Below, piece by piece: positions 1,024 to 58,098 of a stretch of 64,000 nucleotides of DNA. The stretch lies in NCBI GenBank assembly GCA_964616485.1, contig CAZTRB010000001.1:5247-69246 (forward strand). Reading direction: 5' to 3'. The number at the start of each line of letters is the position of its first letter. Position 1 is the first letter of the stretch. The stretch is from an uncultured Muribaculaceae bacterium. Lineage in GTDB: Bacteria > Bacillota_I > Bacilli_A > RF39 > UBA660. The notes beneath the pieces are model-generated. The model did no database searches, was not told the DNA's origin, and saw only the letters and a list, made by a program, of their open reading frames with translations. The translations under genes were made by a program, and so were the position numbers.

Positions 1024-1036
1024 TATTAAAATAAAG

Positions 1037-2154: not shown

Positions 2155-2171
2155 GAATAAAAGTAATAATA

Positions 2172-2204
2172 AATAGAACAAGATTTTTTGTTCTATTTAT
2201 TTTG
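2172..2204 (+). terminator. Rho-independent terminator
   Basis: AATAGAACA / TGTTCTATT stem followed by a T-rich tail. Confidence 0.7.
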
Positions 2205-2264
2205 TCTAAACAAAGAGAAAAATCAATTAAAATATGATAGAATAATACTATAATTGAGGTGTTT

Positions 2265-2894: not shown

Positions 2895-2936
2895 GATAAG
2901 TCTTTTTACTTGTGTTATAATGTTATTGAGGTGTTT

Positions 2937-3959: not shown

Positions 3960-4696
3960 AGACATTTTATTTAACGGATGCCGGTAAAGTCAGGAATCAT
4001 AATGAAGATAGCGTAATTATTACGAAGAATGAGAGTGGCGATTACTTAATGGCTGTTGCCGATGGAATGGGTGGTCACTTATCGGGTGAGGTCGCTTCTT
4101 CACTTACGATAAGTCACTTGAGTAAATGTTTTAATGAGTCTTTTTGTAATATGGAAAAAGCTAAAGCCGTCAATTGGTTAAGAGAGATGGCTACGGAGAT
4201 AAATGATTTAATCTTTACTTATGTCGACGAACATCCTGAAAGTAAAGGGATGGGGACTACTTTAGTCATTGCACTAGTAACTAAAGATTATATTCTTATC
4301 GGTAATATTGGAGATTCTTCTGGTTTTGTCGTTAAGAATTCTAAATTGCATAAAGTAACTTATGACCATACTTTAGTTAATCTTTTATTAAAAGCGGGAG
4401 AATTGACTTTGGATGAAGCTAAAGAACATCCAAAGAAAAATGTCTTGATGAAAGCTTTGGGTGCTAATAATCCGATTGATATCGATATCTTTGATTGTGA
4501 TTTAGATGTTAATTCGGTCTTATTATGTAGTGATGGGCTTACTTCAGTATTAGATAAAGAACAAATAGAGAAAGTCTTAACTAGTGAGTTAAGCATTGAA
4601 GAGAAAGTAGTAAAATTAATTAGAAAAAGTAATAACCGCGGGGGGATGGACAACATATCGATAGCATATATGGATTTATTAGGAAGTGGTGATTAG
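3956..4696 (+). CDS. prpC: PP2C-family Ser/Thr protein phosphatase
   Basis: Motifs NEDS, ADGMGGH and DGLT...GG.DNIS; ATGA overlap with the rlmN stop. Confidence 0.93.
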   Translation: MKTFYLTDAGKVRNHNEDSVIITKNESGDYLMAVADGMGGHLSGEVASSLTISHLSKCFNESFCNMEKAKAVNWLREMATEINDLIFTYVDEHPESKGMGTTLVIALVTKDYILIGNIGDSSGFVVKNSKLHKVTYDHTLVNLLLKAGELTLDEAKEHPKKNVLMKALGANNPIDIDIFDCDLDVNSVLLCSDGLTSVLDKEQIEKVLTSELSIEEKVVKLIRKSNNRGGMDNISIAYMDLLGSGD

Positions 4697-4698
4697 TT

Positions 4699-6426: not shown

Positions 6427-6434
6427 GGAGGTTT

Positions 6435-7274
6435 ATGCAAGGACAAATAATAAAAATAATAAGTAATTTATTTTATGTTTATCAAGACGATATTGTTTAT
6501 CCTTGTAGAAGTAGAGGACTTTTTCGTAATCAAAAGATTACTCCAGTAGTAGGAGATTACTGTATAATCGATAAAAAAAATAATTATATAATGGAAATAT
6601 TGCCTAGAAAAAACTTTTTAGTTAGACCACTAATCGCTAATATCGATCAAGGTCTTATTGTGACTAGTTTAAAAGAACCAGAGTTTTCTACAAATTTATT
6701 AGATAAATTTTTAGTCTTATTAGAATACAATAGTATTAAACCGATTATATGTTTAACTAAAAGAGATTTATTGACTAATAAAGATGAATTTTTAGATATA
6801 AAGAAATATTATGAAGATTTAGGGTACGATGTCATGTATAATGACGAGATAGAACGTTTAAAGAAAATCTTTAAAGATAAGACGACTGTCTTTACTGGAC
6901 AGACTGGTAGTGGGAAGTCATCTTTATTTAATCGTTTAGAACCTACGTTAGACTTTAAGACGGGTGAGATATCGAAAGCCTTAGGAAGAGGAAAACATAC
7001 GACTAGACACGTTGAATTAGTAATGCTCTTCGGTGGTAAATTAGTCGATACTCCAGGTTTTTCTAGTATCGATCTGTCGGATATTCCGGATTTAGGAATA
7101 AGGGACGGTTTCTTAGAATTTGAACGTTTCGAATGTCAATATCGTACTTGCATGCATACTGTAGAAACTACCTCTTTTTGTGGAGTAAAAGAAGCGGTCG
7201 AAGAAAATAAGATAATGGCTTCACGATACGATAACTATTTAAAATTTTTAAAGAACAACGAAAGGAGCTTTTAA
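6435..7274 (+). CDS. rsgA: Ribosome small-subunit-dependent GTPase RsgA (CpgA/YloQ)
   Basis: Circularly permuted GTPase: TKRD precedes GQTGSGKSS. C-terminal Zn motif CQYRTCMH...C. Synteny after prkC. Confidence 0.92.
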   Translation: MQGQIIKIISNLFYVYQDDIVYPCRSRGLFRNQKITPVVGDYCIIDKKNNYIMEILPRKNFLVRPLIANIDQGLIVTSLKEPEFSTNLLDKFLVLLEYNSIKPIICLTKRDLLTNKDEFLDIKKYYEDLGYDVMYNDEIERLKKIFKDKTTVFTGQTGSGKSSLFNRLEPTLDFKTGEISKALGRGKHTTRHVELVMLFGGKLVDTPGFSSIDLSDIPDLGIRDGFLEFERFECQYRTCMHTVETTSFCGVKEAVEENKIMASRYDNYLKFLKNNERSF

Positions 7275-8036: not shown

Positions 8037-8972
8037 ATGGAAGCTGTTGGTAGTTATAACTATTATGAGAGAAAATTTTACGAGAAAGAAGTCACGATGA
8101 CTAAAAATTTAATATTAAATTTTTTAAATGGATTAACTAAAGAAGGAATCACTAAAATTGATTATGATGAACTAGTAAATTATATTGCAGCTGTTTTAAG
8201 AGATAGTAGATTTTCTGAATTGACTAGAATTAGAATACCGCATAAAACGACTTTTGATGATGGTAATTCTTTCTCTTTTTCAAAAATGGCTGTTGCTGAC
8301 ATTGAAAAATCTTTTTATACTATTCCGATGTATAATCAAGATAAAAAAGTTTTAATGTTAAATAAAGAAGGTTTAAATCAACATGTAAATTTATTTGACG
8401 AATTCGATTCTAAGCAACAAGATATCTTAGATAAAATCGTAAACAATTGGAAAGTTTATAAAGAACAACCGAATATACGCGTTGAAAAAAGAGGAATAGA
8501 CATTCAATATTATAATACTAATCCTAATAGGACGTATGCGATTTGTACCGATAGAAGGCATGGTATATTTGGTATATTTAATGGTTTAATAGCGAAAGAT
8601 AAACCGATTCGTAGTTGGGACTTATTTACCGATGGTAATGTTGTTGCCGATAGACTCTGTTTAGAAGCGTCTGCTAATTTTCACGAGTATTCTTTTGAAA
8701 ATCCTGAAAGAGAAGGGTTGCCGGGATTCAAAGCGAAGGCTAGTCGTTTCGTTTCAGTTCGTGATTCTGATTGGGTTGGAATTTCAGGGAAAGTTAATGG
8801 TAATTTAAAGCGTTTAGATGTATATGGGCATTTGACGGATAAAGATATTGAAGAGATTTCTCATCTTGTAGAAGATCCTAGTAAATTTACTACGATAGCA
8901 GCTCATGTACCGGCTGTTAAAGTTTTAACACCACAAACGAATAAAACGAAACGCGTAGGTTTTTATAGTTAG
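8037..8972 (+). CDS. Hypothetical cytoplasmic protein, paralog A (311 aa)
   Basis: GAGGTG SD 7 nt upstream. No TM segment or signal peptide. Homologous along its length to the next gene (shared R.WDLFTDGNV and DPSK motifs). Confidence 0.8.
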   Translation: MEAVGSYNYYERKFYEKEVTMTKNLILNFLNGLTKEGITKIDYDELVNYIAAVLRDSRFSELTRIRIPHKTTFDDGNSFSFSKMAVADIEKSFYTIPMYNQDKKVLMLNKEGLNQHVNLFDEFDSKQQDILDKIVNNWKVYKEQPNIRVEKRGIDIQYYNTNPNRTYAICTDRRHGIFGIFNGLIAKDKPIRSWDLFTDGNVVADRLCLEASANFHEYSFENPEREGLPGFKAKASRFVSVRDSDWVGISGKVNGNLKRLDVYGHLTDKDIEEISHLVEDPSKFTTIAAHVPAVKVLTPQTNKTKRVGFYS

Positions 8973-9023
8973 TTTGCCTGTATTAGTTAATTATTATGTT
9001 GTATAAAACAAATGGGGGATAAA

Positions 9024-9905
9024 ATGCGAGACAATTATGTATATTTTGCTAATAATGAAAAGGTTAGAGAGTTTATCCTGAGGTTTTTAGCGACTTTAAG
9101 TAAAGAGGAAGTTCGTCGTATTAATAGAAATGAACTTACTGATTATATCGTATATCTCATGAATGATGGTCGTTATGATTATCTAATGAGATTGCTTAAA
9201 CAACCGAGTAAAAAAATCGATAATACTAATGCTTACGCTTTTACTAAAAAAGCCATAAAAGGTATAATAAAAAGTAATTATTGTCGATCAGTTAATACAA
9301 AAGAAGGCGAGGTATTAATATTAGACGAGAAAACACTCGCAAGATATCGAAGAACTGTTAAAATGTTTGCTGATGATCATCAAAATACTTATAATAAAAT
9401 AGTCGACGACTGGAAATATCATAAAAAACCTAGAGAAAGAAAGATGTCGAAAAATGGAGTATCATTAATATTAAAAGCAGCACTACCTAACGACTCATAT
9501 ACTTTGTGTACGGAGGAGAGAAAAGGTTTGTTTGGTTTTTTTCTACCACAAGATAAAACAAAAATAAAGAGATGGGATTTATTCACCGATGGTAATGTGA
9601 TTCAAGGACCAGTGAGAAGTGCTTTTGGTAAGAAAGTATTAACGCTTAATCCTAGAGATTTTACGGAAGAAGATTTAAAAGCTAGGCAAGTTAAAGACGT
9701 TATTGTAAAATCTGCTGATTTTGTTGCAATGAGAGGTTATGTCGGTGATACTTTAACGAGCGCTTATGTATATACACCTTTATCAGGAAAGAAATTAGAC
9801 AGTGCTATTTCAATAATAACTGACCCATCTAAAGAAGAGATTCAAGTTGCTGATGAAGCTCCCTATGTCAAAACTTTAGGTCCTAAAATGCCTAGGAGAT
9901 TATAA
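9024..9905 (+). CDS. Hypothetical cytoplasmic protein, paralog B (293 aa from ATG 9024)
   Basis: The GGGGGA SD favours ATG 9024 over 9012. Shares the KRWDLFTDGNV and DPSKEE motifs and the N-terminal helix pattern with 8037-8972. Confidence 0.8.
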   Translation: MRDNYVYFANNEKVREFILRFLATLSKEEVRRINRNELTDYIVYLMNDGRYDYLMRLLKQPSKKIDNTNAYAFTKKAIKGIIKSNYCRSVNTKEGEVLILDEKTLARYRRTVKMFADDHQNTYNKIVDDWKYHKKPRERKMSKNGVSLILKAALPNDSYTLCTEERKGLFGFFLPQDKTKIKRWDLFTDGNVIQGPVRSAFGKKVLTLNPRDFTEEDLKARQVKDVIVKSADFVAMRGYVGDTLTSAYVYTPLSGKKLDSAISIITDPSKEEIQVADEAPYVKTLGPKMPRRL

Positions 9906-9936
9906 TTATTTATGGTTTTATTTAATAAAAGATACT

Positions 9937-9960
9937 AAAGGTACAGAAGTACCTTTTTAT
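9937..9960 (+). terminator. Rho-independent terminator after the paralog pair
   Basis: AAAGGTAC-agaa-GTACCTTT followed by T-rich sequence. Confidence 0.7.
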
Positions 9961-9999
9961 TATTGAAAATATTTGCTAAAATATAGAAGTGGTGATAAA

Positions 10000-10470
10000 A
10001 TGAAAAAAGCTTTTTCGATTGGCGTTATGGGCGTGTTTATTGATCAGGTTACTAAGATGTTTGTACTTGCTAAATTAAAATTAAATGACAGTGTTAGTAT
10101 AATTGCTAATTTTTTTAATTTGACTTATATTAAAAACACCGGTGGAGCTTTCGGTTTGTTTAGTAATGGTACTATTATTTTAGCGGTAATTAGTATCGCT
10201 TTTATATGTTATCTAGTTTATTATTTTTATAAATATAAATTAAATAGCAATTTATATCAGTTTATCTTAGGACTACTCCTAGCAGGAGTTATAGGTAATT
10301 TGATCGATCGTCTAGTTAAAGGATATGTCATCGATTTTTTAGACTTTAAAATATTCGGATATGATTTTCCGATATTTAACGTCGCCGATATCTTTGTCGT
10401 ATGTGGAATGTTATTGTTTATATTAGTTATTATGAAAGAAGGTGACGGTCTTGAAAGTAAAAGTCAGTAA
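10000..10470 (+). CDS. lspA: Lipoprotein signal peptidase II
   Basis: NTGGAFG and FNVADIF motifs in a 4-TM protein; lspA-rluD pairing as in B. subtilis. Confidence 0.92.
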   Translation: MKKAFSIGVMGVFIDQVTKMFVLAKLKLNDSVSIIANFFNLTYIKNTGGAFGLFSNGTIILAVISIAFICYLVYYFYKYKLNSNLYQFILGLLLAGVIGNLIDRLVKGYVIDFLDFKIFGYDFPIFNVADIFVVCGMLLFILVIMKEGDGLESKSQ

Positions 10471-11326
10471 TATTAGAATAGATCAATACTTAGTTGAAGA
10501 GTTAAATTTATCTAGAAGTAAGATTCAAAAGCTTCTTAAAGAAGAGAAAATATTGGTTAATAATTCTAAAGTTAATGCTAATTATATTGTGAAGTTAGAT
10601 GATGAGATAACGATAGTTACTTTAGACTTAGAACCTCCTAAATTAGAAGCTGAGAATATCAAGTTAGATGTTTTATATGAAGATGATTATCTAATGATAA
10701 TTAATAAGAAGAGTGGTATGGTCGTTCATCCTGCTCCGGGTAATTATTCAAAGACTTTAGTCAATGCTCTTTTATATGATAAGAAGCTAAGTAAGGGAGA
10801 GGAATATCGTCCAGGTATCGTTCATCGTTTAGATAAAGATACTTCTGGATTATTAATCGTTGCTAAAGACGATAAAACTCACGATCTTTTAAGTAAGATG
10901 TTAGCGAAACATAAGATCGAGAGAATCTATCACGCTCTTCTTAGTGGAGTCATTCCACATGAGACGGGGACGATAGATGCACCTATTGGTAGAAGTCAAA
11001 AGAATAGACAAAAGATGGATGTAACAGATATCAATAGTAAAGAGGCTATTACGCATTTTAAAGTCTTAAAGAGATTTACTGAAAACACTTTAGTAGAGTG
11101 TCGTTTAGAGACTGGTAGAACCCACCAAATAAGAGTTCATTTCTCTTATATTGGCTATCCGTTAATAAATGATCCTTTATATGGTAAAAGTAGAAAGACG
11201 ACTTCTTTCGGACAATTTCTTCATTCTAAAGAACTAAGGTTTATTCATCCGATAACGAAGAGAGAAATACACGTTGATTCTTCTTTACCAAATGAATTTA
11301 AAGACTATCTATCTACCTTAGAATAA
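10442..11326 (+). CDS. rluD: 23S rRNA pseudouridine synthase, RluD subfamily (S4 domain + RluA-family core)
   Basis: N-terminal S4-like RIDQYL...SRSKIQKLL and catalytic HRLDKDTSGLL. The start is ambiguous (GTG 10442 or TTG 10451). Confidence 0.9.
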   Translation: MTVLKVKVSNIRIDQYLVEELNLSRSKIQKLLKEEKILVNNSKVNANYIVKLDDEITIVTLDLEPPKLEAENIKLDVLYEDDYLMIINKKSGMVVHPAPGNYSKTLVNALLYDKKLSKGEEYRPGIVHRLDKDTSGLLIVAKDDKTHDLLSKMLAKHKIERIYHALLSGVIPHETGTIDAPIGRSQKNRQKMDVTDINSKEAITHFKVLKRFTENTLVECRLETGRTHQIRVHFSYIGYPLINDPLYGKSRKTTSFGQFLHSKELRFIHPITKREIHVDSSLPNEFKDYLSTLE

Positions 11327-11373
11327 TAGCTTTATAAATGTTCTTTTTTATTGTATAATATCATTATAAGGAG

Positions 11374-12531
11374 TTGATAAAATTGCAAGAGACATTAGAT
11401 AGAAAAAACCAAATAGCAATGAAACTTCTTCATTATTTTATTACTGAAGAAAACTATAATCCCGTCGTTCTTCAAGGTGCTGAAGACGAGATTTGGTTAG
11501 AGAATTTAAATGGAGATTATAAGATAATTAGAATCGTTTCTAATCATATTTTAAACGACGAACAATTACAATTCGATCTCTTTAAGACTAAGCATGTCGT
11601 TAAGAAGATAAAGAAAAAGACATTGACGTTTAAGATCAAGGTCTTGAGTATATTTACTGATATCGAAGAGAATATCGAATTAGATAAAGAGAAAGATATC
11701 GATTGTATATCGATATATGATGAGAAAGATTTAGGAAAGTATAATGAAGTCAAGGAGACTTTTCCTGACTTGATGAAGAAAATAAAATTTTCAGAAGAGG
11801 GAGTATCTTTATTTATGAAAATAACTGCTGATATAAATCAGAAAAACAAGGAGGACTCAGTTAAAGTCGACGAAGTCTTTAAGAAGAAAATCCCTTTTGT
11901 TACTTATGGATTAATCGCTATAAATACGACTATCTTTATCTTGATGTATTTTTTAGGCAAGGAACATGAATTTATTCAAAAGTATTCGGTACACGCTTAC
12001 AGCATAATTGTTAAGGGCGAGTACTACCGTCTTTTTACGGGAGCTTTCTTACATGGAGGTATAGCTCACTTCTTATTTAATATGTATGCTCTCTATATTT
12101 TAGGTGCTCAACTAGAAGGGTTTATCGGTAAAGTTCGTTATACTACAGTTTATTTCTTTAGTATTTTAACGGCTAGTCTATTATCGATAATATTAAATGA
12201 TGCCGCATCAGTCGGGGCATCTGGTGCCGTTTTCGGTATCTTAGGTTCGCTTTTGTATTTCGGTTATCATTACCGAGTATACTTAGGTGGAGTTATAAAG
12301 AGCCAGATATTACCGATAATACTAATTAACTTATCTTTTGGGTTCTTAGCTGGTGGAAACATCGATAATTGGGCTCATATCGGTGGGTTAATCGGAGGAC
12401 TCTTGATAACTGTCGGTGTCGGTATAAAGTATAAGAGTAGTAACTTTGAGAGAATTAATGGAATGATCGTCTCTTTATTAGTGGTGGCTTTCTTAATATT
12501 CGTAGCACTTAATTATGTCGTTTTTAGTTGA
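11374..12531 (+). CDS. Rhomboid-family intramembrane serine protease with an N-terminal cytoplasmic domain (GluP/YqgP-like)
   Basis: HxxxN (HFLFNM), GASGAVFG catalytic Ser motif, AHIGG His motif, multiple TM segments. Confidence 0.88.
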   Translation: MIKLQETLDRKNQIAMKLLHYFITEENYNPVVLQGAEDEIWLENLNGDYKIIRIVSNHILNDEQLQFDLFKTKHVVKKIKKKTLTFKIKVLSIFTDIEENIELDKEKDIDCISIYDEKDLGKYNEVKETFPDLMKKIKFSEEGVSLFMKITADINQKNKEDSVKVDEVFKKKIPFVTYGLIAINTTIFILMYFLGKEHEFIQKYSVHAYSIIVKGEYYRLFTGAFLHGGIAHFLFNMYALYILGAQLEGFIGKVRYTTVYFFSILTASLLSIILNDAASVGASGAVFGILGSLLYFGYHYRVYLGGVIKSQILPIILINLSFGFLAGGNIDNWAHIGGLIGGLLITVGVGIKYKSSNFERINGMIVSLLVVAFLIFVALNYVVFS

Positions 12532-48766: not shown

Positions 48767-49327
48767 ATGAGTGAAGTTAGCAATTCTGATAAAGATAAGA
48801 AAAAAGAATTAAAGAAACTAATTAAAGAAGAGAAAAGAATAGATAAAAAAGACAAGCAAAAAGCCAAGAAAAAGACGAAAGAATTTAAAAGGCTAACTGC
48901 TGAAAAAGAAAAAGTTGTCGAAATAAGGAAAAAAAGACATATTTTTGAGTTTTTCGTTATTCTCGTTTTTCTCATCGTTATGTTGGTTCTTTTAGTTAAC
49001 AAAACATTCTTTAGAGAGACTTATAAAACAGATAAAATAAATATAAACATCCCACTCTTGACATATTTTATAAAAGATGACGGTAATCAAGTTGTCCTTA
49101 AAACTCTTAGAAAATCACAGTATGTAGAAGAGTATTTCGATACGTATTTATCGAATTTGACACGTTATAATTGCCAAAACACATATTTTTACTATAACGA
49201 AAATACTAAGACAGCTATATTTGATATTAAGGTAGAAAAAAAGTTCGTCGTTAAAACGGTTAAAATAAATTATAGGAATGGAAATGCCGATTGTATTTGT
49301 TCTAGTCCTACAACTGAATGCGAGTAA
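48767..49327 (+). CDS. Type II membrane protein: Lys-rich cytoplasmic N-terminus, one TM segment, about 100-aa external domain with 4 Cys; unknown function
   Basis: AAGGAG SD; KDKKKELKKLIKEEKR... region; TM segment IFEFFVILVFLIVMLVLLV; C-terminal NC...DCIC....EC. Confidence 0.7.
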   Translation: MSEVSNSDKDKKKELKKLIKEEKRIDKKDKQKAKKKTKEFKRLTAEKEKVVEIRKKRHIFEFFVILVFLIVMLVLLVNKTFFRETYKTDKININIPLLTYFIKDDGNQVVLKTLRKSQYVEEYFDTYLSNLTRYNCQNTYFYYNENTKTAIFDIKVEKKFVVKTVKINYRNGNADCICSSPTTECE

Positions 49328-49364: not shown

Positions 49365-49393
49365 TTGACAAAAACAAAAAAATGTACTATATT
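49365..49393 (+). promoter_or_regulatory. sigma-A promoter, family copy 1
   Basis: TTGACA, 17-nt spacer, TATATT. Confidence 0.55.
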
Positions 49394-49425
49394 AATCGCA
49401 GATTTTAATGAATGGGGGATATAAA

Positions 49426-50164
49426 ATGGAAATAAAAAAATCAGTTGGACCTATTGTTCTTGCTACAGGAATTCTTTTTAGCGGTGTGCTAGACGGCCTA
49501 GTTAATTTAAACAAAGATGAAAAAGATAATAGACAAAGACAAGGAACTGTTTCTAAAATGCTGGGAATTACTACGACAAGAGCCGAAGAAGTTGAATCTT
49601 TAGAAGAGTTTGTCGAAGGATCAATTGTTGGTAATGAAGAAGAAAACGAGAGAAAAGTAAGTAAACCAGTTTCTGAACGTTATCCTGAAGTGAATTTTAC
49701 TGGAAAAGTCAATAAAAGCTTTGTAGATGAATGGTCAGAATATTTTGAACGTGAAACCCTTTATGTTTACGAAAAAGAAGTGTTGACTGCTGAGGAGAAT
49801 CCAATAACAGTTAGAATACTTAGTGGTTGGGATGATTTAGTTGAATTTAAGGATGATGAAGAGTTAACTTTTCTTGGTGAATATGTTTTTAACCCAGATG
49901 ATCTATTATTTTATCGTACCGATAAAAAAAGAGAAAAAAGGGTATCTTTTCTCTTTTGCAGAACTTTCTCATGAGTTAGATTCTAAAGATAATCTTTTTT
50001 ATAATGCGACATTTGGATTGTATCTTGACAGATTAATTTATGGTGAAAATGCGTTTAATCAAGACGAAAAAAATAGTATTTTCTCTCAAATAGAATCGGG
50101 TGATGTAGTCTTAAATTTTGATTATATTAGAGAACCAATTTTGGATCAAGGACCTACAAAATAA
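49426..50164 (+). pseudogene. Family copy 1, disrupted by a +1 frameshift inside A7/A6 homopolymers (track ORFs 49408-49974 and 49874-50164)
   Basis: Removing one A from 49924-49930 or from 49934-49939 restores ..DKKREKGYLFSFAELSHE.., colinear with copy 2 (..DKNREKGYLFSFAELSHE..). Confidence 0.85.
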
Positions 50165-50180
50165 TAAAAGGTTTAATATA

Positions 50181-50211
50181 AAATAGTATTTCTAAAGAGG
50201 TACTATTTTTT
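50181..50211 (+). terminator. Rho-independent terminator after copy 1
   Basis: AATAGTA-12 nt-TACTATT followed by a T-run. Confidence 0.65.
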
Positions 50212-50391
50212 GTGGCTAAAAAAGTATAAAAACACAAGAAATATACGTTAAAAACCGACGAGTAGCGGTCAAAAAATATTTAAGCAATAAAGGATCCAAC
50301 AATATTATCGGTGAATATTAAGCGTTGGTAAATCATTTGAGATAAAATGATTAATGTAATAATAATTTTGAAGAAAAATTACATATGAAAC

Positions 50392-50418
50392 TTGACAAAA
50401 AACAAAAAATGTTATAAT
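50392..50418 (+). promoter_or_regulatory. Promoter with consensus hexamers and extended -10, family copy 2
   Basis: TTGACA, 15-nt spacer ending in TGt, TATAAT. The spacer is shorter than optimal. Confidence 0.5.
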
Positions 50419-50450
50419 CTAGCCATATTTAATGAATGGGGGAAATTAAA

Positions 50451-51209
50451 ATGGGAATTAAAAAAACAGTTGGGACGATAACACTTGCAACAGGTATACT
50501 TTTTAGTGGCGTGCTAGATGGCCTAGTTAATTTAAACAAAGATGAAAAGGATAACAAAGTTAGACAGGGTGTGGTTTCCGAGTGGGGGATTCCTAAAGTG
50601 AGAGCTGAAGAAGTTGAGACTTTGGAAGAAATTTTGGAAAGCCAAATTGTTGGAAGTGAAAAAGAAGCGGTTGTTGAAGAGAATGTAGAAAACGAGAGGA
50701 AAGTAAGTAAGCCAGTTTCCGAACGTTATCCTGAAGTGAATTTTACTGGAAAAACTAATAAAAGTTTTGTGGATGAATGGTCAGAATATTTTGACAGCAC
50801 ACCTCTTTATGTCTACGAAAAAGAAGTGTTGAATGCTGAAGGGAATCCAATTACAGTTAGAATACTTGATGAGTGGGATGATTTAGTTGAATTTAAGGGT
50901 GATGAAGAGTTAACTTTTCTTGGCGAATACATCTTTAATCCAGATGATCTATTATTTTATCGTACTGATAAAAACAGAGAGAAAGGGTATCTTTTCTCAT
51001 TCGCAGAGCTTTCTCATGAGTTAGATCCTAAGGACACTCTTTTTGATGATTCTACATTTGCGTTGTATCTTGACAGATTAATTTACGGTGAAGGAGCCTT
51101 TAATCAAGACGAAAAATATAGTATTTTTTCTCAAATAGAATCGGGTGATATAGTCTTAAATTTTGATTATGTCAGAGAACCAATTTTAGATCAAGGACCA
51201 ACAAAATAA
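50451..51209 (+). CDS. Family copy 2: exported or N-terminally anchored protein of unknown function (252 aa)
   Basis: GGGGGA SD before ATG 50451. Hydrophobic N-terminus KKTVGTITLATGILFSGV. No recognisable domain. Confidence 0.8.
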   Translation: MGIKKTVGTITLATGILFSGVLDGLVNLNKDEKDNKVRQGVVSEWGIPKVRAEEVETLEEILESQIVGSEKEAVVEENVENERKVSKPVSERYPEVNFTGKTNKSFVDEWSEYFDSTPLYVYEKEVLNAEGNPITVRILDEWDDLVEFKGDEELTFLGEYIFNPDDLLFYRTDKNREKGYLFSFAELSHELDPKDTLFDDSTFALYLDRLIYGEGAFNQDEKYSIFSQIESGDIVLNFDYVREPILDQGPTK

Positions 51210-51226
51210 TAAAAGTTTAAATATAA

Positions 51227-51258
51227 AATAGTATTTCTAAAGAGGTGCTATTTTTTTT
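51227..51258 (+). terminator. Rho-independent terminator after copy 2
   Basis: Same hairpin as 50181-50211, with one A-to-G change that keeps pairing as a G-U wobble, followed by T8. Confidence 0.65.
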
Positions 51259-51435
51259 GTTGCTAAAAAAGAAAAAAAACAAGAAATATACGTTGAAAAC
51301 CGATGAGTAGCAGTCTACAAATATTTAGTAATAAAGGATCCAACAATATTATCGGTGAATATTAAGTGTTGGTAAATCATTTGAGATAAAATGATTAATG
51401 TAATAATAATTTTGAAGAAAAATTACATATGAAAC

Positions 51436-51462
51436 TTGACAAAAAACAAAAAATGTTATAAT
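51436..51462 (+). promoter_or_regulatory. Promoter with extended -10, family copy 3
   Basis: Identical sequence to 50392-50418. Confidence 0.5.
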
Positions 51463-51494
51463 CTAGCCATATTTAATGAATGGGGGAAATTAAA

Positions 51495-52274
51495 ATGGGA
51501 ATTAAAAAAACAATTGGGACGATAACACTTGCAACAGGTATACTTTTTAGTGGTATGCAAGACGGCCTAGTTAATTTAAACAAAGATGAAAAGGATAACA
51601 GAGTTAGACAGGGTGTGGTTTCTGAGTGGGGGATTGCTAAAGCGAGAGCTGAAGAAGTTGAGACTTTGGAGGAAATTTTGGAAAGCCAAATTGTTGGAAG
51701 TGAAGAAGAAACGATTGTTGAAGAGAACGTTGGGTTTACAAAAAAAGTAAATAAACCAGCGTCTGAACGTTATCCAGAAATTGGATTTACTGATGAGGTT
51801 AATCAATACTTTATCGATACTATGACGGAAGTTTTAAATGCTAGAAAGCACTATGTATATGAAAGAGAAATGTTAACTGAGGAGGATGTTCCTGTAAAAG
51901 TTAGAGTGATTAGTCGAAAAGATAATTTGATTTTATTAAAAGCAGACGATGACTTAACATTCCTTGGAGAGTACGTTTTCAATCCGGATGATCCAATATT
52001 TTATTATAGCGATGTTAATAGAAAAAAAGGATATATTCTTTCATTTAATGATCTTTCTCGTAAAGTTGATCCACAAAACAATCCTTTTGATAACAGTTCT
52101 GTAGCTGCTCCGTATTATGATACTTTGATATATGGTGGGAGTTCGTTTAATCAAGAAGAAAAATATAGTGTTTTTTCTCAAATAGAGTCGGGTGATTTAA
52201 CTTTTGAACTTAGTTTCGTAGGCGAACCAGAAATAGTAAATGAATATTCGTTAGAGCAAGGCCCAGCAAAATAA
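51495..52274 (+). CDS. Family copy 3: divergent paralog (259 aa)
   Basis: The first ~75 aa are nearly identical to copy 2. The central and C-terminal parts are diverged but colinear (LTFLGEYVFNPDD, FSQIESGD, EQGPAK retained). Confidence 0.8.
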   Translation: MGIKKTIGTITLATGILFSGMQDGLVNLNKDEKDNRVRQGVVSEWGIAKARAEEVETLEEILESQIVGSEEETIVEENVGFTKKVNKPASERYPEIGFTDEVNQYFIDTMTEVLNARKHYVYEREMLTEEDVPVKVRVISRKDNLILLKADDDLTFLGEYVFNPDDPIFYYSDVNRKKGYILSFNDLSRKVDPQNNPFDNSSVAAPYYDTLIYGGSSFNQEEKYSVFSQIESGDLTFELSFVGEPEIVNEYSLEQGPAK

Positions 52275-52294
52275 TTTAAAATATAATATATTAG

Positions 52295-52319
52295 AGAGTT
52301 ACATGTGTAACTCTTTTTT
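52295..52319 (+). terminator. Rho-independent terminator after copy 3
   Basis: AGAGTTACA/TGTAACTCT palindrome followed by T5. Confidence 0.8.
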
Positions 52320-52549
52320 GACGTAAATGTTTTTAATATTTTGTTACTGTAAATGAGATTGTAAAAAACAAGAATTTTTTTAGTTTGATATCAACAAGTC
52401 AAGTACATGTTCAATGAGTCCATAAAAAAATGAATAATATACTATTTGCTCTTTTTAAAAAGGTTTAAAACAATAATATGTTTAAGATAAAAAAGTTTGA
52501 AAAAAAAATGATGCTGTAGTATACTTTATATAAAGATAGGTGGAATAAA

Positions 52550-53269
52550 TTGAAAAATAAAAAGAGAAAAAAAATAATAGTATCATCATTAATAAATCTT
52601 TTAATTTTAACGGTTTTTTTTGTTTTCCCTTTTGAGGTTGAAGCCGCGAGAGAGCTTTGCACAAGCAAAATTCTTTCTGAACAAAAAAGTAAAGCACATA
52701 ATATTAATTTTGATTACGAATTAAAGTATGATGAACACAATTCATACTATTACGAAGTATCGTTTTCTAATATTAAAGAAGGAATTGAATTTTATTATGG
52801 CGGGATGGCTTATAAGTATTTAGAAGAAAAACCAACTCAAATTTTAATGCCTATGTTTGAAGGTGGAACAACTTTAGAAATGGAAGTGTTTGTTTCATAT
52901 GGATATCCTTGTGTTGGAGAAAAAGTGGGTACAAAACATTTAAAACTTCCAAAATACAATAAATACAGTGAGTTAAAAGAATGTATTGAATATGAAGAAT
53001 TCCCTTTGTGTGGAAAGCATTATGAGGGTGACATTCCTAATTTACAATATTTTACTGAAAAGCTAGAAAAATACAAAGCATCTTTAAATAAAGAAGAACC
53101 GATAGAGGTTGTTGAAAAAAACAAAAGTATTTTTGAAAAAATAATTGCTTTTTATATTAATAATTTTATAATAACTTTGCCAATTACGGTTATAATTTTT
53201 GGTTCAGGTGTTTATTATGTAATAAGAATTATAGTTAACAATAAAAGAAGAATAAAGATAAAATTTTAG
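52550..53269 (+). CDS. Exported, C-terminally tail-anchored protein (239 aa, 4 Cys), unknown function
   Basis: TTG start after an AGGTGG SD. Signal peptide ..VFFVFPFEVEA/AR. C-terminal TM segment ITLPITVIIFGSGVYYVIRII plus a basic tail. Confidence 0.72.
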   Translation: MKNKKRKKIIVSSLINLLILTVFFVFPFEVEAARELCTSKILSEQKSKAHNINFDYELKYDEHNSYYYEVSFSNIKEGIEFYYGGMAYKYLEEKPTQILMPMFEGGTTLEMEVFVSYGYPCVGEKVGTKHLKLPKYNKYSELKECIEYEEFPLCGKHYEGDIPNLQYFTEKLEKYKASLNKEEPIEVVEKNKSIFEKIIAFYINNFIITLPITVIIFGSGVYYVIRIIVNNKRRIKIKF

Positions 53270-53277
53270 GAGGTCTC

Positions 53278-56200
53278 ATGAAAAAACATATAAAATCAAT
53301 GAAATTACAATTTTTATTTGTAATTTTATTGGTAATATCACTAAATCAAGTAGTATTAGCTAATGGAACTGAAGCAAGACCTACACAAGACTCTTTAAAA
53401 GAAGCAAGCTTTCATTGGCCAGGTAGCGGTTCTGCTAATAGTTATGCAACGATAACAAATGCCGGAAAAAAGTGTGAACCAACCGACTTATGTTTTTCTG
53501 AAAATGCAATGTATGTTAAGCTTTTAAGGTATGATTACAAAACTAAAAATGTTGAAACAGTTGCAACGATTTTGTTTTATAATGGTGGAACCTTGAGCGA
53601 TGCTACTGTAGTTGATAAACCAGCAGAAGAAGCTGAACGTGTTGATTCTTGGCTTTTGAATTTTATTGGTTCAGTATTAGATTTAGCAAAAGCGGAGCTT
53701 ATGGATGGGCATACAACAGGTAAGGCAACCGTAGATAAACCTTATAAAGTTAGTCATTCTTTTTATGCGTTCGAAGAAATAACAATCTATGATAAACAGC
53801 ATATTAAAGTTTGCTCGACATCTAAAGATTGTACTAGTGGAAAAGTAAAAGTGATCTATGATCCCAATTTGCCTAAGTTAAGAAATGGGACTTTAGCTAA
53901 TTATGTTAAAGAGATTTTACAAGGTAAATATTTTGCAAGTACAGCCGCAATTAAAGAGACTTTTGGAGTAAATAACTACGATTTGAGGAATTTAGAGGAA
54001 TATTATTTTGCTTTTGAACCGGTCGCTAGGGTTGGTATTGAAAGGAAAGAAGATATTCTCAATGAAAAATATGAGCAAAAGATATCCACATTAACGCCTG
54101 ATAAAGTTGACCCTTGGTTCTACTTATATTGCCCACTAAGTCGTGAAAATAGATGGGTACGAGCGACTTCAATAGATGATGCAATCAACTCAATTACAGT
54201 TCCTTGTGGGAGTACAACTACTACCTATAGTTGTTCATTAAATTCGAATACATATAGTTCTTCATCTAATTGTAAAAGTGGTTGTAAAAAGACTACTTAT
54301 AAAGGTTATGGCTGTGCTGGAAATTCGCCGGATACAGCTATTACATATGACTCGGAAAAGAAATGTAACGATGAATGTGATACTACTTGTACATCGTCTA
54401 CAACTTCTGGAACTTGTACAGAAAACACGACCTCGAATACAGGTAGTTGGGAATATAGTTATAAAGCGGAAATGATAGGAGGAGAAATTAGATATTCAAT
54501 CTTGTTTACACGAGAATATAAAGGGGTGTCAAAATTAGTCCCTGCTAGAGAAACGGGAAAGTTGAGTTTAATTAGATCTTTGGTTTCTGATTATTATGGT
54601 GGTCCAGTTAAACACTGTATTTTAGATAGTAATAATGAGTGTACTAATAAATTTGAATATTATATTGGACCTACTTTAAATACTGCACTAGTAAGTGGTG
54701 GTGGAGACTCTAAATACCAACTTTGGGATTATGACTTAGGAGCAGCTGCTATAACTTCTGGAACTGCGTCTACTTATTCAGTTGGAGTATCATATTGGTG
54801 GCTTCCTGATGTAATACAATGTACAGACCCAGATGTTTGTGGTGGAAAGCAAGGAGATGAACTTCTTAAATGTGCTGAAAACTTTTGTGATAATGCGATT
54901 GCTTATGACTCTAGGGCAAACACAAACAAATTGAAAGAAGCTTGCATTTTAAATGATTGCGATTATAAGTATACTAGATTTAATTGTTTAAATAACAACC
55001 CATATTTAAGTGCTGCGACTCCAGATACCTCACTTTCTATTAATGCAACAAATGTGTGTAGTACTGTTGAAACAGGTAGATTGCCGAATGGACCGTCCGA
55101 AAAAAATATTAGAACGATAACTACTTGTGAGTCAGATACGAGTACAGTATTTGATCAAATGAATTTCTTAATCGTTGCTTGCAAAGAGAGTTCGTCGTTT
55201 AAATATAAAGACTTATCGACCAGAAAAATTGTTGCTGGCGAAGGCTTAGATTATTTTGCTAAACTAAAAGGTGAAAAAGAATGCTCTGTTTTTATCGATG
55301 TTGACTCTTGGAAACTCGTATACGCTTCGATTCATTCTAAAGATGAAGTAATTATTACAAAAGGTGGCGTGAAAACAGTTAAAAATTCTAGACAATTAAT
55401 GGAAGAGCTTTTAGATTATTTCAATAGTGGTTTAAAAAACGGAGTTAATGTTTCAATTGGGATAGATTTTGCAGGTAACGATGTAGCTATCTCATGGGAT
55501 CAATTAAATTATTCAATAAATAAAGTAAGTGTTAAGACCAAAGTAACAGAGATAATTAATAATAAAAAAGAACATTCAAATGAATATACTCTTGTTAGAG
55601 GAAATACGATTGAAGATGGAACACCAACAACAACTTCGACAGCAACAAATTATACTGTTGGTTATGGCAGATATGTTGGAAAGACAATGAGCATTAATAG
55701 TTATATTAATAGGAGTGTCGTAGATGTTAATTATGTATTTGATAAACATTGTGTTACGTCAGATGGAAGAGCGTCTATTTACGGAGCAGATGCACAAGGT
55801 AAGTGTAATGATGGAAATCCGGGACGAAACGTATACTATACGAGTTTAAATGCGACACCAGATAGAGACTTTATCGATGCTTTTAAACCAATTGGTGAAG
55901 GGCACTCTATAAATAAAACAGTCGCCGAAATTAAAAAGAATGTAATAGGCAATGATATATATTTAAAAGACGACGAATTTTGTCCGTATCATATTGATGG
56001 AGGCGACGATGTTAATGGAGATTTTGGATGTACAGTCGTATTAACCCCAAAACCTGGCACAGAGATGCATGGTAACAAGATTTTTGTTGGAGGAGTTATA
56101 GCAACATTAGAAATCCAAGACAATTTAAAAAATGATATAACAATTGCAAGTTATGGAATATGTCCATATGCACACCATGAAGAAAATGGATTAATAACAA

Positions 56201-57234
56201 TCGATATAGATAAACAAGATAATTATGCTGGTGAAGAAACAGTCGATATAACAGGAGTAGTTACGACTAGCAATGGTGGAATTAGGACTTGTCGTACACA
56301 AGTTGTTCTTATCTCTGATGACACAGGATGTCCAGCAAAATGTAGTGTAGAAAAAACGGCCGTAGATAACTTATATGAAATAGTCGATATATATAACAAC
56401 GCTCAGAATGTTTATACGGCAACTTCTCGTGACATTACTTTTATAAGAGTTTCAAAAAACATGGATAGGGATAGCCGTTTTAATGGGAAATATATTGTAA
56501 GAGCTGATAAGACAGAATATAGCTATTATTTATATGGAAAAGTTACTAACGTTATAGGTTCTCAACCATGTTCTAACGTTTGTTGGAATAAACTACCAGG
56601 TCCAGAATTAACCAATTGTAAAGCATTATACAAAGGTGGTGAAGTAGCTAAGATAAAAAAATATTGCGATTCATCTTGGGATAAAGATATTAATGCTTAT
56701 GAAAGCTCTAGCGATTGCGTTACTCAATGTAGTAGTGGGATATGTGAGTTGAGTGATGATTTACCAAAAGTTTCAAATGAATGTAACATAGACTTTGCCA
56801 ATTGGGGATTTGTGAATGTTTCTTCTTGTATAAATTATTGTTACAAATCACCCGGTGGTTCAGATTATCTATATCGACCTATATTAAATAAAGATCCTTT
56901 TCCTAATTCTCATATTTCAGAAGTAAAAGGAAAAAGAATAATAGGTGCTAACTGGATAGGTAAAGAGCATTATATAACAGATGATGACGATGACTTTACT
57001 AGCGCGACGGGAGCGCATGCTAATACAAATGTCGAATTTGTAATTGATTTAACCCCAAGTGATATTAGAAGAATAAGAGAAGACATTAAAAAGTATAATG
57101 ACTCAGCGAAAGGAAACGATTCATACTTAGACTATGTTTATAGGAAAGGTGTCGATGAAAAAGGGAAATATCAAAGTAAGTTTATCCATGAAACGTTTAA
57201 CGATTTATTTAAAGTAACTAATGGTGAAAGATAA
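53278..57234 (+). CDS. Very large secreted cysteine-rich protein (1318 aa), unknown family
   Basis: AGGAGG SD. Sec-type signal peptide MKKHIKSMKLQFLFVILLVISLNQVVLA/NG. About 45 Cys counted by eye. No LPXTG motif, lipobox or C-terminal anchor. Uninterrupted 3.96-kb ORF in AT-rich DNA. Confidence 0.85.
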   Translation: MKKHIKSMKLQFLFVILLVISLNQVVLANGTEARPTQDSLKEASFHWPGSGSANSYATITNAGKKCEPTDLCFSENAMYVKLLRYDYKTKNVETVATILFYNGGTLSDATVVDKPAEEAERVDSWLLNFIGSVLDLAKAELMDGHTTGKATVDKPYKVSHSFYAFEEITIYDKQHIKVCSTSKDCTSGKVKVIYDPNLPKLRNGTLANYVKEILQGKYFASTAAIKETFGVNNYDLRNLEEYYFAFEPVARVGIERKEDILNEKYEQKISTLTPDKVDPWFYLYCPLSRENRWVRATSIDDAINSITVPCGSTTTTYSCSLNSNTYSSSSNCKSGCKKTTYKGYGCAGNSPDTAITYDSEKKCNDECDTTCTSSTTSGTCTENTTSNTGSWEYSYKAEMIGGEIRYSILFTREYKGVSKLVPARETGKLSLIRSLVSDYYGGPVKHCILDSNNECTNKFEYYIGPTLNTALVSGGGDSKYQLWDYDLGAAAITSGTASTYSVGVSYWWLPDVIQCTDPDVCGGKQGDELLKCAENFCDNAIAYDSRANTNKLKEACILNDCDYKYTRFNCLNNNPYLSAATPDTSLSINATNVCSTVETGRLPNGPSEKNIRTITTCESDTSTVFDQMNFLIVACKESSSFKYKDLSTRKIVAGEGLDYFAKLKGEKECSVFIDVDSWKLVYASIHSKDEVIITKGGVKTVKNSRQLMEELLDYFNSGLKNGVNVSIGIDFAGNDVAISWDQLNYSINKVSVKTKVTEIINNKKEHSNEYTLVRGNTIEDGTPTTTSTATNYTVGYGRYVGKTMSINSYINRSVVDVNYVFDKHCVTSDGRASIYGADAQGKCNDGNPGRNVYYTSLNATPDRDFIDAFKPIGEGHSINKTVAEIKKNVIGNDIYLKDDEFCPYHIDGGDDVNGDFGCTVVLTPKPGTEMHGNKIFVGGVIATLEIQDNLKNDITIASYGICPYAHHEENGLITIDIDKQDNYAGEETVDITGVVTTSNGGIRTCRTQVVLISDDTGCPAKCSVEKTAVDNLYEIVDIYNNAQNVYTATSRDITFIRVSKNMDRDSRFNGKYIVRADKTEYSYYLYGKVTNVIGSQPCSNVCWNKLPGPELTNCKALYKGGEVAKIKKYCDSSWDKDINAYESSSDCVTQCSSGICELSDDLPKVSNECNIDFANWGFVNVSSCINYCYKSPGGSDYLYRPILNKDPFPNSHISEVKGKRIIGANWIGKEHYITDDDDDFTSATGAHANTNVEFVIDLTPSDIRRIREDIKKYNDSAKGNDSYLDYVYRKGVDEKGKYQSKFIHETFNDLFKVTNGER

Positions 57235-57242: not shown

Positions 57243-57272
57243 AAACAGTATAGAAAAATCTATACTGTTTTC
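57243..57272 (+). terminator. Rho-independent terminator after the 1318-aa gene
   Basis: AAACAGTATAG-6 nt-CTATACTGTTT followed by a T-rich tail. Confidence 0.8.
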
Positions 57273-57378: not shown

Positions 57379-57414
57379 ATGGAATTGTCACGTGTAAAGA
57401 AGAGGTGTATTAAA

Positions 57415-58098
57415 GTGTTTTATAATGAATTAAAAACAATCAATGCTTGTGATGATGACCCGTCCCTGATTTTTCAACTACTTAGGGAAAATCATATTGA
57501 ATTAATCGATAAGATATTATCGAGAAAGACATTTGATATTAATGTAGTTGATGAAAATGGAAACAATATTTTAACGAGACTGTTAAAAAGAGGATACTAT
57601 GATATCGTATTAAACCATCTTAAAGATAAGAGATGGAATATAAACCACCAAAATAATGATGGTGATACATTTATGCATGTTTTAGTTACGATGAACTACG
57701 TTAGTGTAGTCGACATAATTAAAGCGGTTAAGAAGAATAAAGACTTGCTTCTTAATATAAAGAATAATGAAGGCGAAACGATTCTCGATAAATCTATTAA
57801 ATATGGATATATTTATACTACTTCTAAGATATTGGAAGATGAGAGATTCGATAATGTCGGAATTTTGTCTTTTAAGAATTTATATGAGACTTATATTAAG
57901 ACTAATATTTATGGAAAATATACTAAACTTAATAATTTAGAAATGATTATCGATAATTTAGAAAATAAAGACGTTAGTCCTAAAGTAAAAGAGTTAATAG
58001 AAAATTTAAAAGATAACTTTGAAGATATTAAAAATGATTTTATAAACAATAAGACTGATAATATCGATTATCTTGTAAACAAAATATTGTTTGAATAA
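57415..58098 (+). CDS. Ankyrin-repeat protein (about 227 aa, no signal peptide)
   Basis: GTG 57415 lies 7 nt after an AGAGGTG SD. About 3-4 degenerate ANK repeats (NGNNILTRLLKRGYYDIVLNHL; DGDTFMHVLV...VVDIIKAV; EGETILDKSIKYGY..T.SKIL). Confidence 0.65.
   Translation: MFYNELKTINACDDDPSLIFQLLRENHIELIDKILSRKTFDINVVDENGNNILTRLLKRGYYDIVLNHLKDKRWNINHQNNDGDTFMHVLVTMNYVSVVDIIKAVKKNKDLLLNIKNNEGETILDKSIKYGYIYTTSKILEDERFDNVGILSFKNLYETYIKTNIYGKYTKLNNLEMIIDNLENKDVSPKVKELIENLKDNFEDIKNDFINNKTDNIDYLVNKILFE

Follow-up and report, generated by a model that had tools for sequence, protein, structure and literature searches.

The PilY1/PilC tip adhesins of type IVa pili are proteins of ~1000 to 1300 amino acids (aa) that Sec exports by means of an ordinary signal peptide. 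They are encoded alongside genes of the filament machine and combine a conserved C-terminal docking part with a variable N-terminal binding part. Among Tad pili, the Kil system of Myxococcus has exchangeable minor-pilin "Tip" complexes (PMC12075869), and CpaL of Caulobacter is a large pilin-like protein of the TadG/CpaL type (PMC12607857); several alternative modules, some of them encoded away from the main cluster, are proposed to be variable heads for one Tad machine. For Gram-positive gut bacteria, Miller et al. (2022) predicted an operon with DUF5411 that resembles a type IV pilus or type II secretion system (T2SS) and includes an internalin-like protein, in Roseburia, Ruminococcus, and Eubacterium (PMC9523054). 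Here, we describe two adjacent genes in a 64,000-nucleotide (nt) stretch of DNA from an uncultured bacterium (GenBank assembly GCA_964616485.1, contig CAZTRB010000001.1), referred to as the window. They encode a small membrane-anchored protein (G1) and a very large, cysteine-rich secreted protein (the giant), and had been singled out in an earlier reading of the sequence, the original prediction, as a two-gene operon of no recognisable family. The open reading frame (ORF) list places both genes at the same coordinates as that reading did:

52550-53269, + strand: gene 1 (G1), TTG start, 239 aa
53278-57234, + strand: gene 2 (giant), ATG start, 1318 aa

The best explanation of our data is that this pair is a stand-alone copy of a conserved two-gene module of a divergent Tad-like filament system, found in a walled, small-genome lineage of gut and rumen Bacilli/Erysipelotrichaceae. 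As to its role, we hold with middling confidence that the pair acts as an adhesin module that can be exchanged, is stabilised by disulfides, and serves a Tad-like type IV filament system. Neither protein family has been annotated, and the only description of the machine variant is a single computational mention; systems of this general kind, in which a filament-associated or surface adhesin has its own oxidoreductase, are already known.

By analogy, the module would work most like the PilY1/PilC tip adhesins and the Myxococcus Tad Tips, and it is a member of neither family. The giant shares with PilY1/PilC the size range, the Sec export with an ordinary signal peptide, the coding position with filament-machine genes, and the polarity of conservation. 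In contrast to them, it has no C-terminal beta-propeller (its last 220 aa are predicted as helices and coil) and no vWA domain, it is paired with a type I membrane protein and not with a minor-pilin complex, and the machine is Tad-like rather than type IVa. We found no Pfam match of the giant to PilY1, Neisseria_PilC, or VWA, and no PilY1 chain among its Foldseek top 50. With the Tips and CpaL, the present system has in common that several alternative modules occur, some away from the main cluster. Whereas those proteins are pilin-like and processed by prepilin peptidase, the giant and G1 have signal peptides of the signal peptidase I (SPase-I) type and no pilin helix, and they have no sequence or fold similarity to the Tips or CpaL. 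A retained prepilin helix of the TadE type is likewise absent: cleavable A-x-A-type signal peptides are kept across the family in both proteins, neither of which has a TadE match in Pfam.

The operon of Miller et al. is the sole literature trace of DUF5411; a language model predicted this CpaF/PilC/DUF5411 operon, itself uncharacterised, for gut Clostridia, and the G1-giant module is not mentioned there (PMC9523054). Like the clusters described below, it is known from sequence and not from experiment, and it likewise combines DUF5411 and a CpaF-class ATPase (with PilC/GspF, as in our locus L003) with an adjacent putative adhesion or invasion protein in Gram-positive gut bacteria. Its description includes no anchor, Cys-rich giant, or thioredoxin, however, and the hosts here are small-genome Bacilli/Erysipelotrichaceae. 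Bulleidia extructa's tad operon (PMC12786226) was considered as the same system and rejected, being a different, conventional tad locus.

The gene pair and related filament gene clusters

Scanning genomes with a G1 alignment located 14 loci, all in metagenome-assembled genomes (MAGs) of uncultured gut or rumen "Bacilli"/Erysipelotrichaceae from rabbit, sheep rumen, Hadza human gut, and other sources. Among these genomes, a circular one of 1.31 Mb (OZ006981.1) holds two copies, L008 and L012. A consensus gene order was assembled from a BLAST map together with Pfam and NCBIfam matches, compiled across loci and not from any one of them in full. It begins with a CxxC thioredoxin lipoprotein encoded on the opposite strand and continues with one or two copies of G1, then the giant, DUF5411, a CpaB/RcpC-SAF protein, a T2SSE-class ATPase, two TadB/C-like polytopic proteins, a small Flp-like pilin (MKEATG/ELNMTLVTIIAIAAVL...), a TadE-like protein, and a TadZ-like protein. 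In 11 loci (L001, L006, L007, L009 to L014, along with L016 and L018, which are more distant), a giant preceded by one or two copies of G1 lies directly 5' of DUF5411; the giants of full clusters are 1195 to 1892 aa long and contain 39 to 56 Cys. At L017 (positions 53 to 6807), two tandem anchor-plus-giant modules precede DUF5411 (227 plus 789 aa and 241 plus 988 aa, the giants having 17 and 28 Cys), and these giants are too diverged to match the family hidden Markov model (HMM). The CpaB/RcpC-SAF protein and the ATPase follow downstream in all these loci except L010, L012, and L013. Two TadB/C-like membrane proteins were found downstream in L006, L011, L016, L017, and L018 and also in L015, which has no giant, and a Flp-like pilin and/or TadE-like protein could be read in L006, L011, L016, and L015. 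L003 has a G1 homolog with DUF5411, T2SSF (7e-46), and a prepilin peptidase (Peptidase_A24, 1.7e-31) after it. The pair is thus no isolated oddity, a point missed in the original prediction: the window copy is a satellite of the module that forms the first two genes of a conserved Tad-like cluster.

The components of the machine were matched with varying strength. The CpaB-like protein, found in 11 related loci and absent from the window, scores 26.9 bits against SAF (gathering score 21), 27.7 against RcpC (gathering score 28.8), and 32 bits (6e-8) against the TIGR03177 CpaB model, which has a 71-bit cut-off. In the related loci, the ATPase downstream of the module matches PF00437 T2SSE above its gathering score (1.6e-25), and its NCBIfam matches to VirB11 (1.3e-30), TadA-conjugal (1.8e-27), and TrbB all lie far below the cut-offs and do not separate the subfamilies. 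The Flp-like ORF is 68 to 89 aa long where fully read (L006, L011, L015, and L016) and has a pilin-like length and a hydrophobic helix. From such matches, "Tad-like type IV filament" is as specific a description of the machine as the evidence supports.

A stand-alone G1-giant pair was also found at L008, in the same circular MAG that holds the full cluster L012. Given this precedent and the clusters that have G1 and no giant, the window pair is most simply a satellite of a machine encoded elsewhere in its genome. At L008 (15656 to 16054), the pair lies just 3' of two ORFs (350 and 800 aa) that by eye resemble pheS and pheT. After the pair comes a short ORF, likewise by eye only a duplicate of the C-terminal end of pheT, which is possibly a scar of module insertion. 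Stand-alone pairs with their own promoter-like site and terminators, in the window and at L008, are what would be expected of an autonomous wall-spanning adhesin, the model of the original prediction: G1 would anchor the giant permanently, and the giant would cross the peptidoglycan and bind host or food surfaces without any machine, the Tad-like genes adjoining only through co-regulation or a shared thioredoxin. The classical stop-transfer transmembrane (TM) segment and basic tail of G1, the lack of a pilin-like N terminus in the giant, and its predicted immunoglobulin (Ig)-like stalk also fit that model, which we nevertheless regard as unlikely. The module lies directly 5' of DUF5411 in 11 loci, with G1 alone in that place in 4 more, and the CpaB-like and ATPase genes mostly follow on the same strand at short gaps, an arrangement beyond loose co-regulation. 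Furthermore, the G1 genes that lie directly 5' of DUF5411 without a giant (L003, L004, L015, and a contig of GCA_016648615) tie G1 to the machine and not to the giant alone.

Within the module, pairing is consistent. A giant lies directly downstream of the G1 homolog in 12 of 12 loci, at gaps of -20 to +121 nt (-20 to +18 in 10 of the 12), so that the ORFs often overlap; modules have been duplicated as pairs (the L017 tandem); and distances among G1 proteins are correlated with those among the giants (Mantel r 0.82, p 5e-4). The anchor-plus-giant partnership put forward in the original prediction fits this adjacency, paired duplication, and co-divergence. Pairwise identities among five species are as follows:

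giant 28-49%, G1 38-47%, thioredoxin 45-62%
CpaB-like 53-84%, DUF5411 64-93%, ATPase 68-84%

The giant is therefore the fastest-evolving component, and within it the last 220 residues are better conserved than the first 400. These rates bear on the idea that G1 and the giant are structural machine parts, an envelope-spanning conduit or collar replacing the secretin and alignment complex. Their place as the first genes of the operon, adjoining DUF5411 and CpaB, would suit such a role, and the conserved core and C terminus with their invariant Cys suggest a rigid scaffold. A core ring would not, however, be expected to evolve fastest (28-49% identity versus 68-84% for the ATPase), to vary from 0 to 1 to at least 2 copies per cluster or genome, or to have a highly variable N terminus and a length of 780 to 1900 aa, and we judge a conduit quite improbable.

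Exported proteins of Firmicutes tend to avoid cysteine, and the extracytoplasmic disulfide catalysts of Gram-positive bacteria include MdbA (actinobacterial pilins), BdbD/DsbA, and PedC/BrcD (bacteriocins). The original prediction had proposed a search for a DsbA/BdbD-type oxidoreductase. In 12 related loci, a divergently transcribed thioredoxin lies beside the module, with a CxxC motif in 12/12 and a strict lipobox pattern in 9/12; in the related loci only, and by sequence, it is an exported CxxC thioredoxin-fold partner, and none is encoded in the window. It matches the thioredoxin Pfam model above its gathering score (28 versus 23.5 bits), and its closest NCBIfam model is the PedC/BrcD disulfide isomerase TIGR01295 (4.2e-7, 30 bits versus a cut-off of 120). 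Like MdbA, BdbD, and PedC, it is an exported CxxC thioredoxin-fold lipoprotein beside presumed Cys-rich substrates; unlike them, it falls below curated cut-offs, and its presumed substrates are a 145-kDa protein with ~45 Cys and an anchor. A dedicated exported thioredoxin beside the module would be a plausible cause for this Cys-rich exception among Firmicutes.

The upstream neighbors of the main cluster, an ABC ATPase, an ABC2_membrane_3 permease, and a DAGK_cat kinase, are the same in L001, L006, L011, and L012 (four species), which indicates a vertically inherited chromosomal locus and not an island. Right after the L015 cluster (8890 to 11940) are a T4SS_pilin-like gene (4.5e-5, below gathering), a gene for a 400-aa exported protein, and one for a TrbL_4 protein (4.7e-8); either a conjugative type IV secretion system lies next door or the cluster contains conjugation-type parts. 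A secreted toxin, bacteriocin-like factor, or mobile-element conjugation adhesin could be read into the T4SS_pilin-like and TrbL_4 genes, the conjugation-type best NCBIfam matches of the ATPase, and the resemblance of the thioredoxin to a bacteriocin-maturation isomerase (below the cut-off). We consider this barely credible: no toxin, enzyme, relaxase, or VirB4/VirD4 domain was found in any scanned member, the ABC2 and DAGK flanks of the main cluster are conserved chromosomally in four species, and the window pair is flanked by housekeeping genes at uniform GC content. In polymorphic toxins, the N-terminal delivery region is conserved, the C-terminal toxin domain varies, and an immunity gene lies alongside. 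The giant has the opposite polarity, with a conserved C terminus and a variable N terminus, and a toxin domain was found in 0 of 17 scanned giant members, so that the toxin role allowed by the original prediction finds no support.

Architecture of G1 and the giant

The features of G1, all on the + strand, are as follows:

aa 1-32: signal peptide (..VEA/AR), from hydropathy and alignment
aa 33-202: ectodomain, containing one helix and a 7-strand Ig/FN3-like beta-sandwich (aa 53-132) as well as a Cys loop (aa 133-154)
aa 133-154: conserved Cys loop, LPKYNKYSE..CIEYEEFPLC
aa ~203-228: TM segment, with a basic tail after it

Hydropathy gives two hydrophobic segments in G1, residues 7-33 and ~197-230, the latter followed by NNKRRIKIKF. 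An AlphaFold2 (AF2) model of G1, with a predicted local distance difference test score (pLDDT) of 80.6, agrees with them (helices 2-25 and 206-233) and consists of the signal helix, a short helix, the beta-sandwich at 53-132, the Cys loop, a linker helix, and the TM helix. These results bear out the signal peptide, the four Cys (residues 37, 121, 145, and 154), and the C-terminal TM segment with basic tail noted earlier. The term "tail-anchored" was right about the C-terminal TM segment and otherwise loose, as the cleavable N-terminal signal peptide makes G1 a type I bitopic membrane protein. About 20 G1 homologs were found, in MAGs of uncultured gut or rumen Bacilli/Erysipelotrichaceae; their alignment has in common the 4 invariant Cys, the motif LPKYNKYSE..CIEYEEF.LC, a V-x-A signal-peptidase site, and the C-terminal TM segment and basic tail. 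A Foldseek search with the G1 model returned generic FN3/Ig folds only (best E 0.013).

Neither protein had a match in scans of Pfam, NCBIfam, and PHROGs, and profiles of the two families found nothing among PDB sequences; with generic Ig-like folds as the only structural hits, the earlier statement that no family was recognisable stands. No LPxTG motif or lipobox was found in G1 or the giant by regular-expression search, as had been read by eye for gene 2, and neither protein has a Pfam or NCBIfam domain match to SLH, CWB, or LysM-type repeats. By word-index search, the sole match to the giant is a protein with 61% identity (P0001). In the protein database, the 90% cluster that holds the window giant is represented by a 48-aa fragment, which probably explains the giant's own absence from these matches. 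An exhaustive HMMER search with residues 119-1318 recovered 114 representatives (50% clustering), of which 57 matched below 1e-30; almost all are either 1200 to 1500 aa long or fragments, and all come from MAGs of uncultured gut or rumen Bacilli/Erysipelotrichaceae. We take as hallmarks of the G1 family the signal peptide, the 4 invariant Cys, LPKYNKYSE..CIEYEEF.LC, and the C-terminal TM segment, and as hallmarks of the giant family the signal peptide, a Cys core with KCAENFCDN, and at the C terminus the RPI..(D/N)PFP..G.R.IG.NW module. All of these are present in the window proteins, whose genes are adjacent.

The giant contains exactly 45 Cys (3.4%), 4.7× the window background and the highest Cys fraction in the window; the other 58 + strand window ORFs average 0.73% Cys (binomial P = 9e-17 for the giant). 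The earlier count of about 45 Cys was accurate, and 14 of the 44 gaps between consecutive Cys are of 6 residues or fewer. All 57 full-length homologs have an N-terminal signal peptide and 32 to 61 Cys. In an alignment of 59 sequences (58 homologs), ~30 of the 45 Cys columns are conserved at 85% or more, nearly all of them from residue 515 on; conservation does not extend to the Cys within the first ~300 residues. The original prediction had allowed that homologs might lack conserved Cys, which would have made them incidental; with this degree of conservation, the cysteines are, on the alignment, a family trait and functional. The count is odd, so at least one Cys must lie outside intramolecular disulfides; it could be free or in an intermolecular bond, for example to G1 with its 4 Cys.

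An AF2 model of residues 119-1318, built on the same 59-sequence alignment, has a pLDDT of 78.7 and a predicted template modeling score (pTM) of 0.68. It is confident (~85-95) from residue ~408 to the end and poor over the Cys/Ser/Thr-rich residues ~259-408. The giant can be divided as follows:

53278-53361, + strand: Sec-type signal peptide, aa 1-28 (..VVLA/NG)
53362-54501, + strand: variable N-terminal region, aa 29-408, including the low-confidence Cys/Ser/Thr-rich aa ~259-408 (pLDDT < 50 at ~259-406)
54502-55878, + strand: conserved alpha/beta core, aa 409-867, with an invariant Cys block at aa 515-669 (C..C..KCAENFCDN..C..C)
55879-56568, + strand: all-beta region ("stalk"), aa 868-1097, predicted as tandem Ig/cadherin/FN3-like sandwiches by DSSP of the AF2 model
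56569-57231, + strand: C-terminal hallmark module, aa 1098-1318

Residues 4-31 are the single hydrophobic segment of the giant, in agreement with the classical Sec signal peptide assigned earlier. Over aa 29-408, mean identity to homologs is 0.06-0.23, and most Cys are unconserved except four between aa 319 and 380. Compared with P0001 in 60-aa blocks, this region is 23-66% identical, lowest in aa 1-60 (23%) and 121-300. Along the whole protein, identity to P0001 is mosaic: parts of the N-terminal 300 aa share 23-41%, aa 781-900 share 83-95%, and the final ~120 aa share 93-100%. Such a pattern suggests that the N-terminal part has undergone recombination or strong diversifying selection. The core has Cys columns conserved at 0.92-1.0 and a pLDDT of about 85-95, and no PDB fold match to it was found among the Foldseek top 50.

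For the stalk, Foldseek against PDB returned protocadherins, RbmA, the MpIBP adhesin, and GhpA at E 7e-6 to 3e-4, with query-normalised TM-scores of at most 0.09, and against BFVD it returned viral or phage Ig/FN3-like proteins. We read these matches as a probable generic stalk, the rest of the giant being unmatched; no adhesin, toxin, S-layer, PilY1, or secretin fold was found for the giant or G1 against PDB and BFVD. The predicted tandem Ig/cadherin-like domains resemble adhesin stalks, and the tandem beta-sandwiches at aa ~868-1097 are likewise found in Ig/cadherin-repeat adhesins (MpIBP 4p99, RbmA 4kkr, GhpA 9flw, and protocadherins). The match, however, covers < 25% of the giant at ~10% identity, nothing in those adhesins corresponds to the Cys-rich core or the C-terminal module, and the giant has no RTX, LPxTG, or type I secretion signal. 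The original prediction had also proposed a duplicated CPY(H/A)H...C module. This could not be sustained, with a local score of 25 against a shuffle mean of 23.8 (z 0.26) and C962 kept in 3% of homologs; the CPY region is nonetheless predicted as tandem beta-sandwich domains in the AF2 model.

In the C-terminal module, a helical block rich in Cys (aa 1098-1188, 10 Cys) precedes the giant's most conserved segment, ~125 residues that are coil-rich and confidently placed (YRPI..(D/N)PFP..G.R.IG.NW..Y.IDL.P..I..IR.D..FIH..F). Its conservation, 0.3-0.49, is the highest in the family, with invariant R, P, F, P, and W, and it is the best-scoring stretch in most distant family matches. Shorter family members (780 to 1060 aa) keep the Cys core and, most strongly, this module. 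A domain scan covered 17 giant members, including 15 further ones picked for unusual length, and no Pfam domain was found in those 15.

Such a C-terminal module could serve as the recognition signal of a secretion cargo. The giant would then be folded and oxidised at the outer face of the membrane, held by G1, pushed through the peptidoglycan by a short Tad-like pseudopilus, and released, a T2SS-like piston that we regard as improbable. T2SS substrates are exported by Sec and oxidised by DsbA prior to secretion, as would be the case here; diffusion through the wall is improbable for a folded 145-kDa protein that contains many disulfides; and duplicated or satellite adaptor-plus-cargo pairs recall the adaptor-effector logic of other secretion systems. 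However, we found no monoderm T2SS precedent, a real pilin and a TadE-like minor pilin equally fit a true pilus, a cluster without a giant exists (L015), and no enzyme or toxin domain would make release useful. A shade more doubtful still is the wider proposal that the machine is a monoderm counterpart of the T2SS and not an adhesive pilus, with G1 as the cognate adaptor of a thioredoxin-oxidised giant, a short Flp-like pseudopilus driving the giant out across the peptidoglycan, and the satellites as extra adaptor-plus-cargo cassettes for a shared machine.

The transcription unit and its surroundings

The signals around the two genes, all on the + strand, are as follows:

52293-52322, + strand: upstream intrinsic-terminator-like hairpin, 10-bp stem and U-run, terminating the preceding paralog gene
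52497-52525, + strand: candidate sigma-70-like promoter TTGAAA-17-TATACT, 25 nt 5' of gene 1, with 10/12 consensus matches
53268-53273, + strand: AGGAGG Shine-Dalgarno sequence of gene 2, overlapping the gene 1 stop codon, read from the sequence
57243-57272, + strand: downstream terminator hairpin, 12-bp stem, apparently bidirectional, from a consensus scan

The two-gene operon and its terminator boundaries were both supported, since the hairpins fold far better than shuffled sequence (upstream, 52293-52316, dG -11 kcal/mol, z -3.2; downstream, 57243-57270, dG -15.1 kcal/mol, z -6.0). The consensus terminator scan reported only the downstream hairpin and missed the upstream one because its stem has too few G-C pairs. 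Gene 2 does lie behind AGGAGG, as first read, at a measured distance of 8 nt from the gene 1 stop codon and not 9 nt; as this Shine-Dalgarno sequence overlaps the stop codon, translational coupling of the two genes is likely. The promoter candidate is a consensus match of a kind no commoner in the region than in shuffles. No riboswitch or other Rfam RNA was found in the 275-nt leader at E ≤ 1.

The neighbors of the pair in the window have housekeeping functions or are unrelated to it (UppP, GH3, Gmk, GT2, DUF6020, a protein with ankyrin repeats, MiaB, and LexA), and as the window encodes the peptidoglycan proteins PASTA kinase, MltG/YceG, GlmM, and UppP, the organism is walled. A mobile-element or prophage origin of the pair was considered and rejected, GC content being uniform, housekeeping genes lying on both sides, and phage families being absent. 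No direct repeats flank the gene pair as a mark of recent insertion; the only repeats are those of the tandem paralog genes upstream. There, at 49372-52274, three tandem direct repeats of ~1045 bp encode paralogous N-terminally anchored or secreted proteins. Two copies, 50436-51209 (257 aa) and 51480-52274 (264 aa), are 62% identical, and the first (49408-50164) is frameshifted into ORFs of 188 and 96 aa. These paralogs had no Pfam, NCBIfam, or PHROG match and no homolog in any related locus. Before them, a 186-aa ORF (48767-49327) encodes a protein with a very Lys-rich N terminus, one TM segment, and a C-terminal Cys cluster (..NADCICSSPTTECE), with no family match. Right after the module terminator lies a gene for an ankyrin-repeat protein (57379-58098; Ank_4, 2.6e-11) that weakly resembles Legionella effectors of the AnkG type. 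As a kind of repeat uncommon among Bacilli, it could relate to host interaction.

Proposed mechanism and significance

We propose that G1 and the giant would be exported by Sec and their signal peptides removed, after which the conserved Cys of both would be oxidised outside the membrane by the CxxC thioredoxin lipoprotein, whose gene would lie outside the window in this genome. The most conserved, C-terminal ~250 aa of the giant would dock membrane-proximally onto the Cys loop of G1, onto the filament machine, or onto both, and the Ig-like stalk and the fast-evolving N-terminal ~400 aa would project through the wall as the binding end. The module would thus be an exchangeable adhesin head, with several anchor-plus-giant modules, in the cluster or elsewhere, serving one machine.

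Several observations weigh against this adhesin reading. Thioredoxin, DUF5411, CpaB, ATPase, platform, pilin, and peptidase homologs are all absent from the 64-kb window. The machine is divergent by its sequence matches, with the ATPase below the VirB11, TadA-conjugal, and TrbB cut-offs and CpaB at or below its own; the TadB/C-like proteins after the ATPase (~299 and ~265 aa) have no T2SSF or other Pfam match, genuine T2SSF being found only in L003; and the Flp-like pilin has no canonical G/xxxxEY motif and no family match. The giant itself cannot be a pilin subunit, given its ordinary SPase-I signal peptide and the lack of a prepilin leader, and its C terminus, helical and coil in the AF2 model, is unlike the beta-propeller of a PilY1-type tip. 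A ligand-binding domain was recognisable in no scanned giant member. Gene order is what suggests G1-giant binding and filament contact, and the Mantel correlation may come from shared phylogeny alone.

The module defines an unannotated family with more than 100 cluster representatives, tied by synteny to an undescribed Gram-positive Tad-like machine, and its conserved motifs permit Pfam-style models of two new families and thereby better annotation of MAGs. The system offers a handle on how the type IV filaments of bacteria without an outer membrane gain exchangeable heads and possibly secrete folded cargo. Uncultured Bacilli/Erysipelotrichaceae with small genomes occur widely in human, rumen, and rabbit guts, and the module is a candidate route by which they may attach to hosts or particles.

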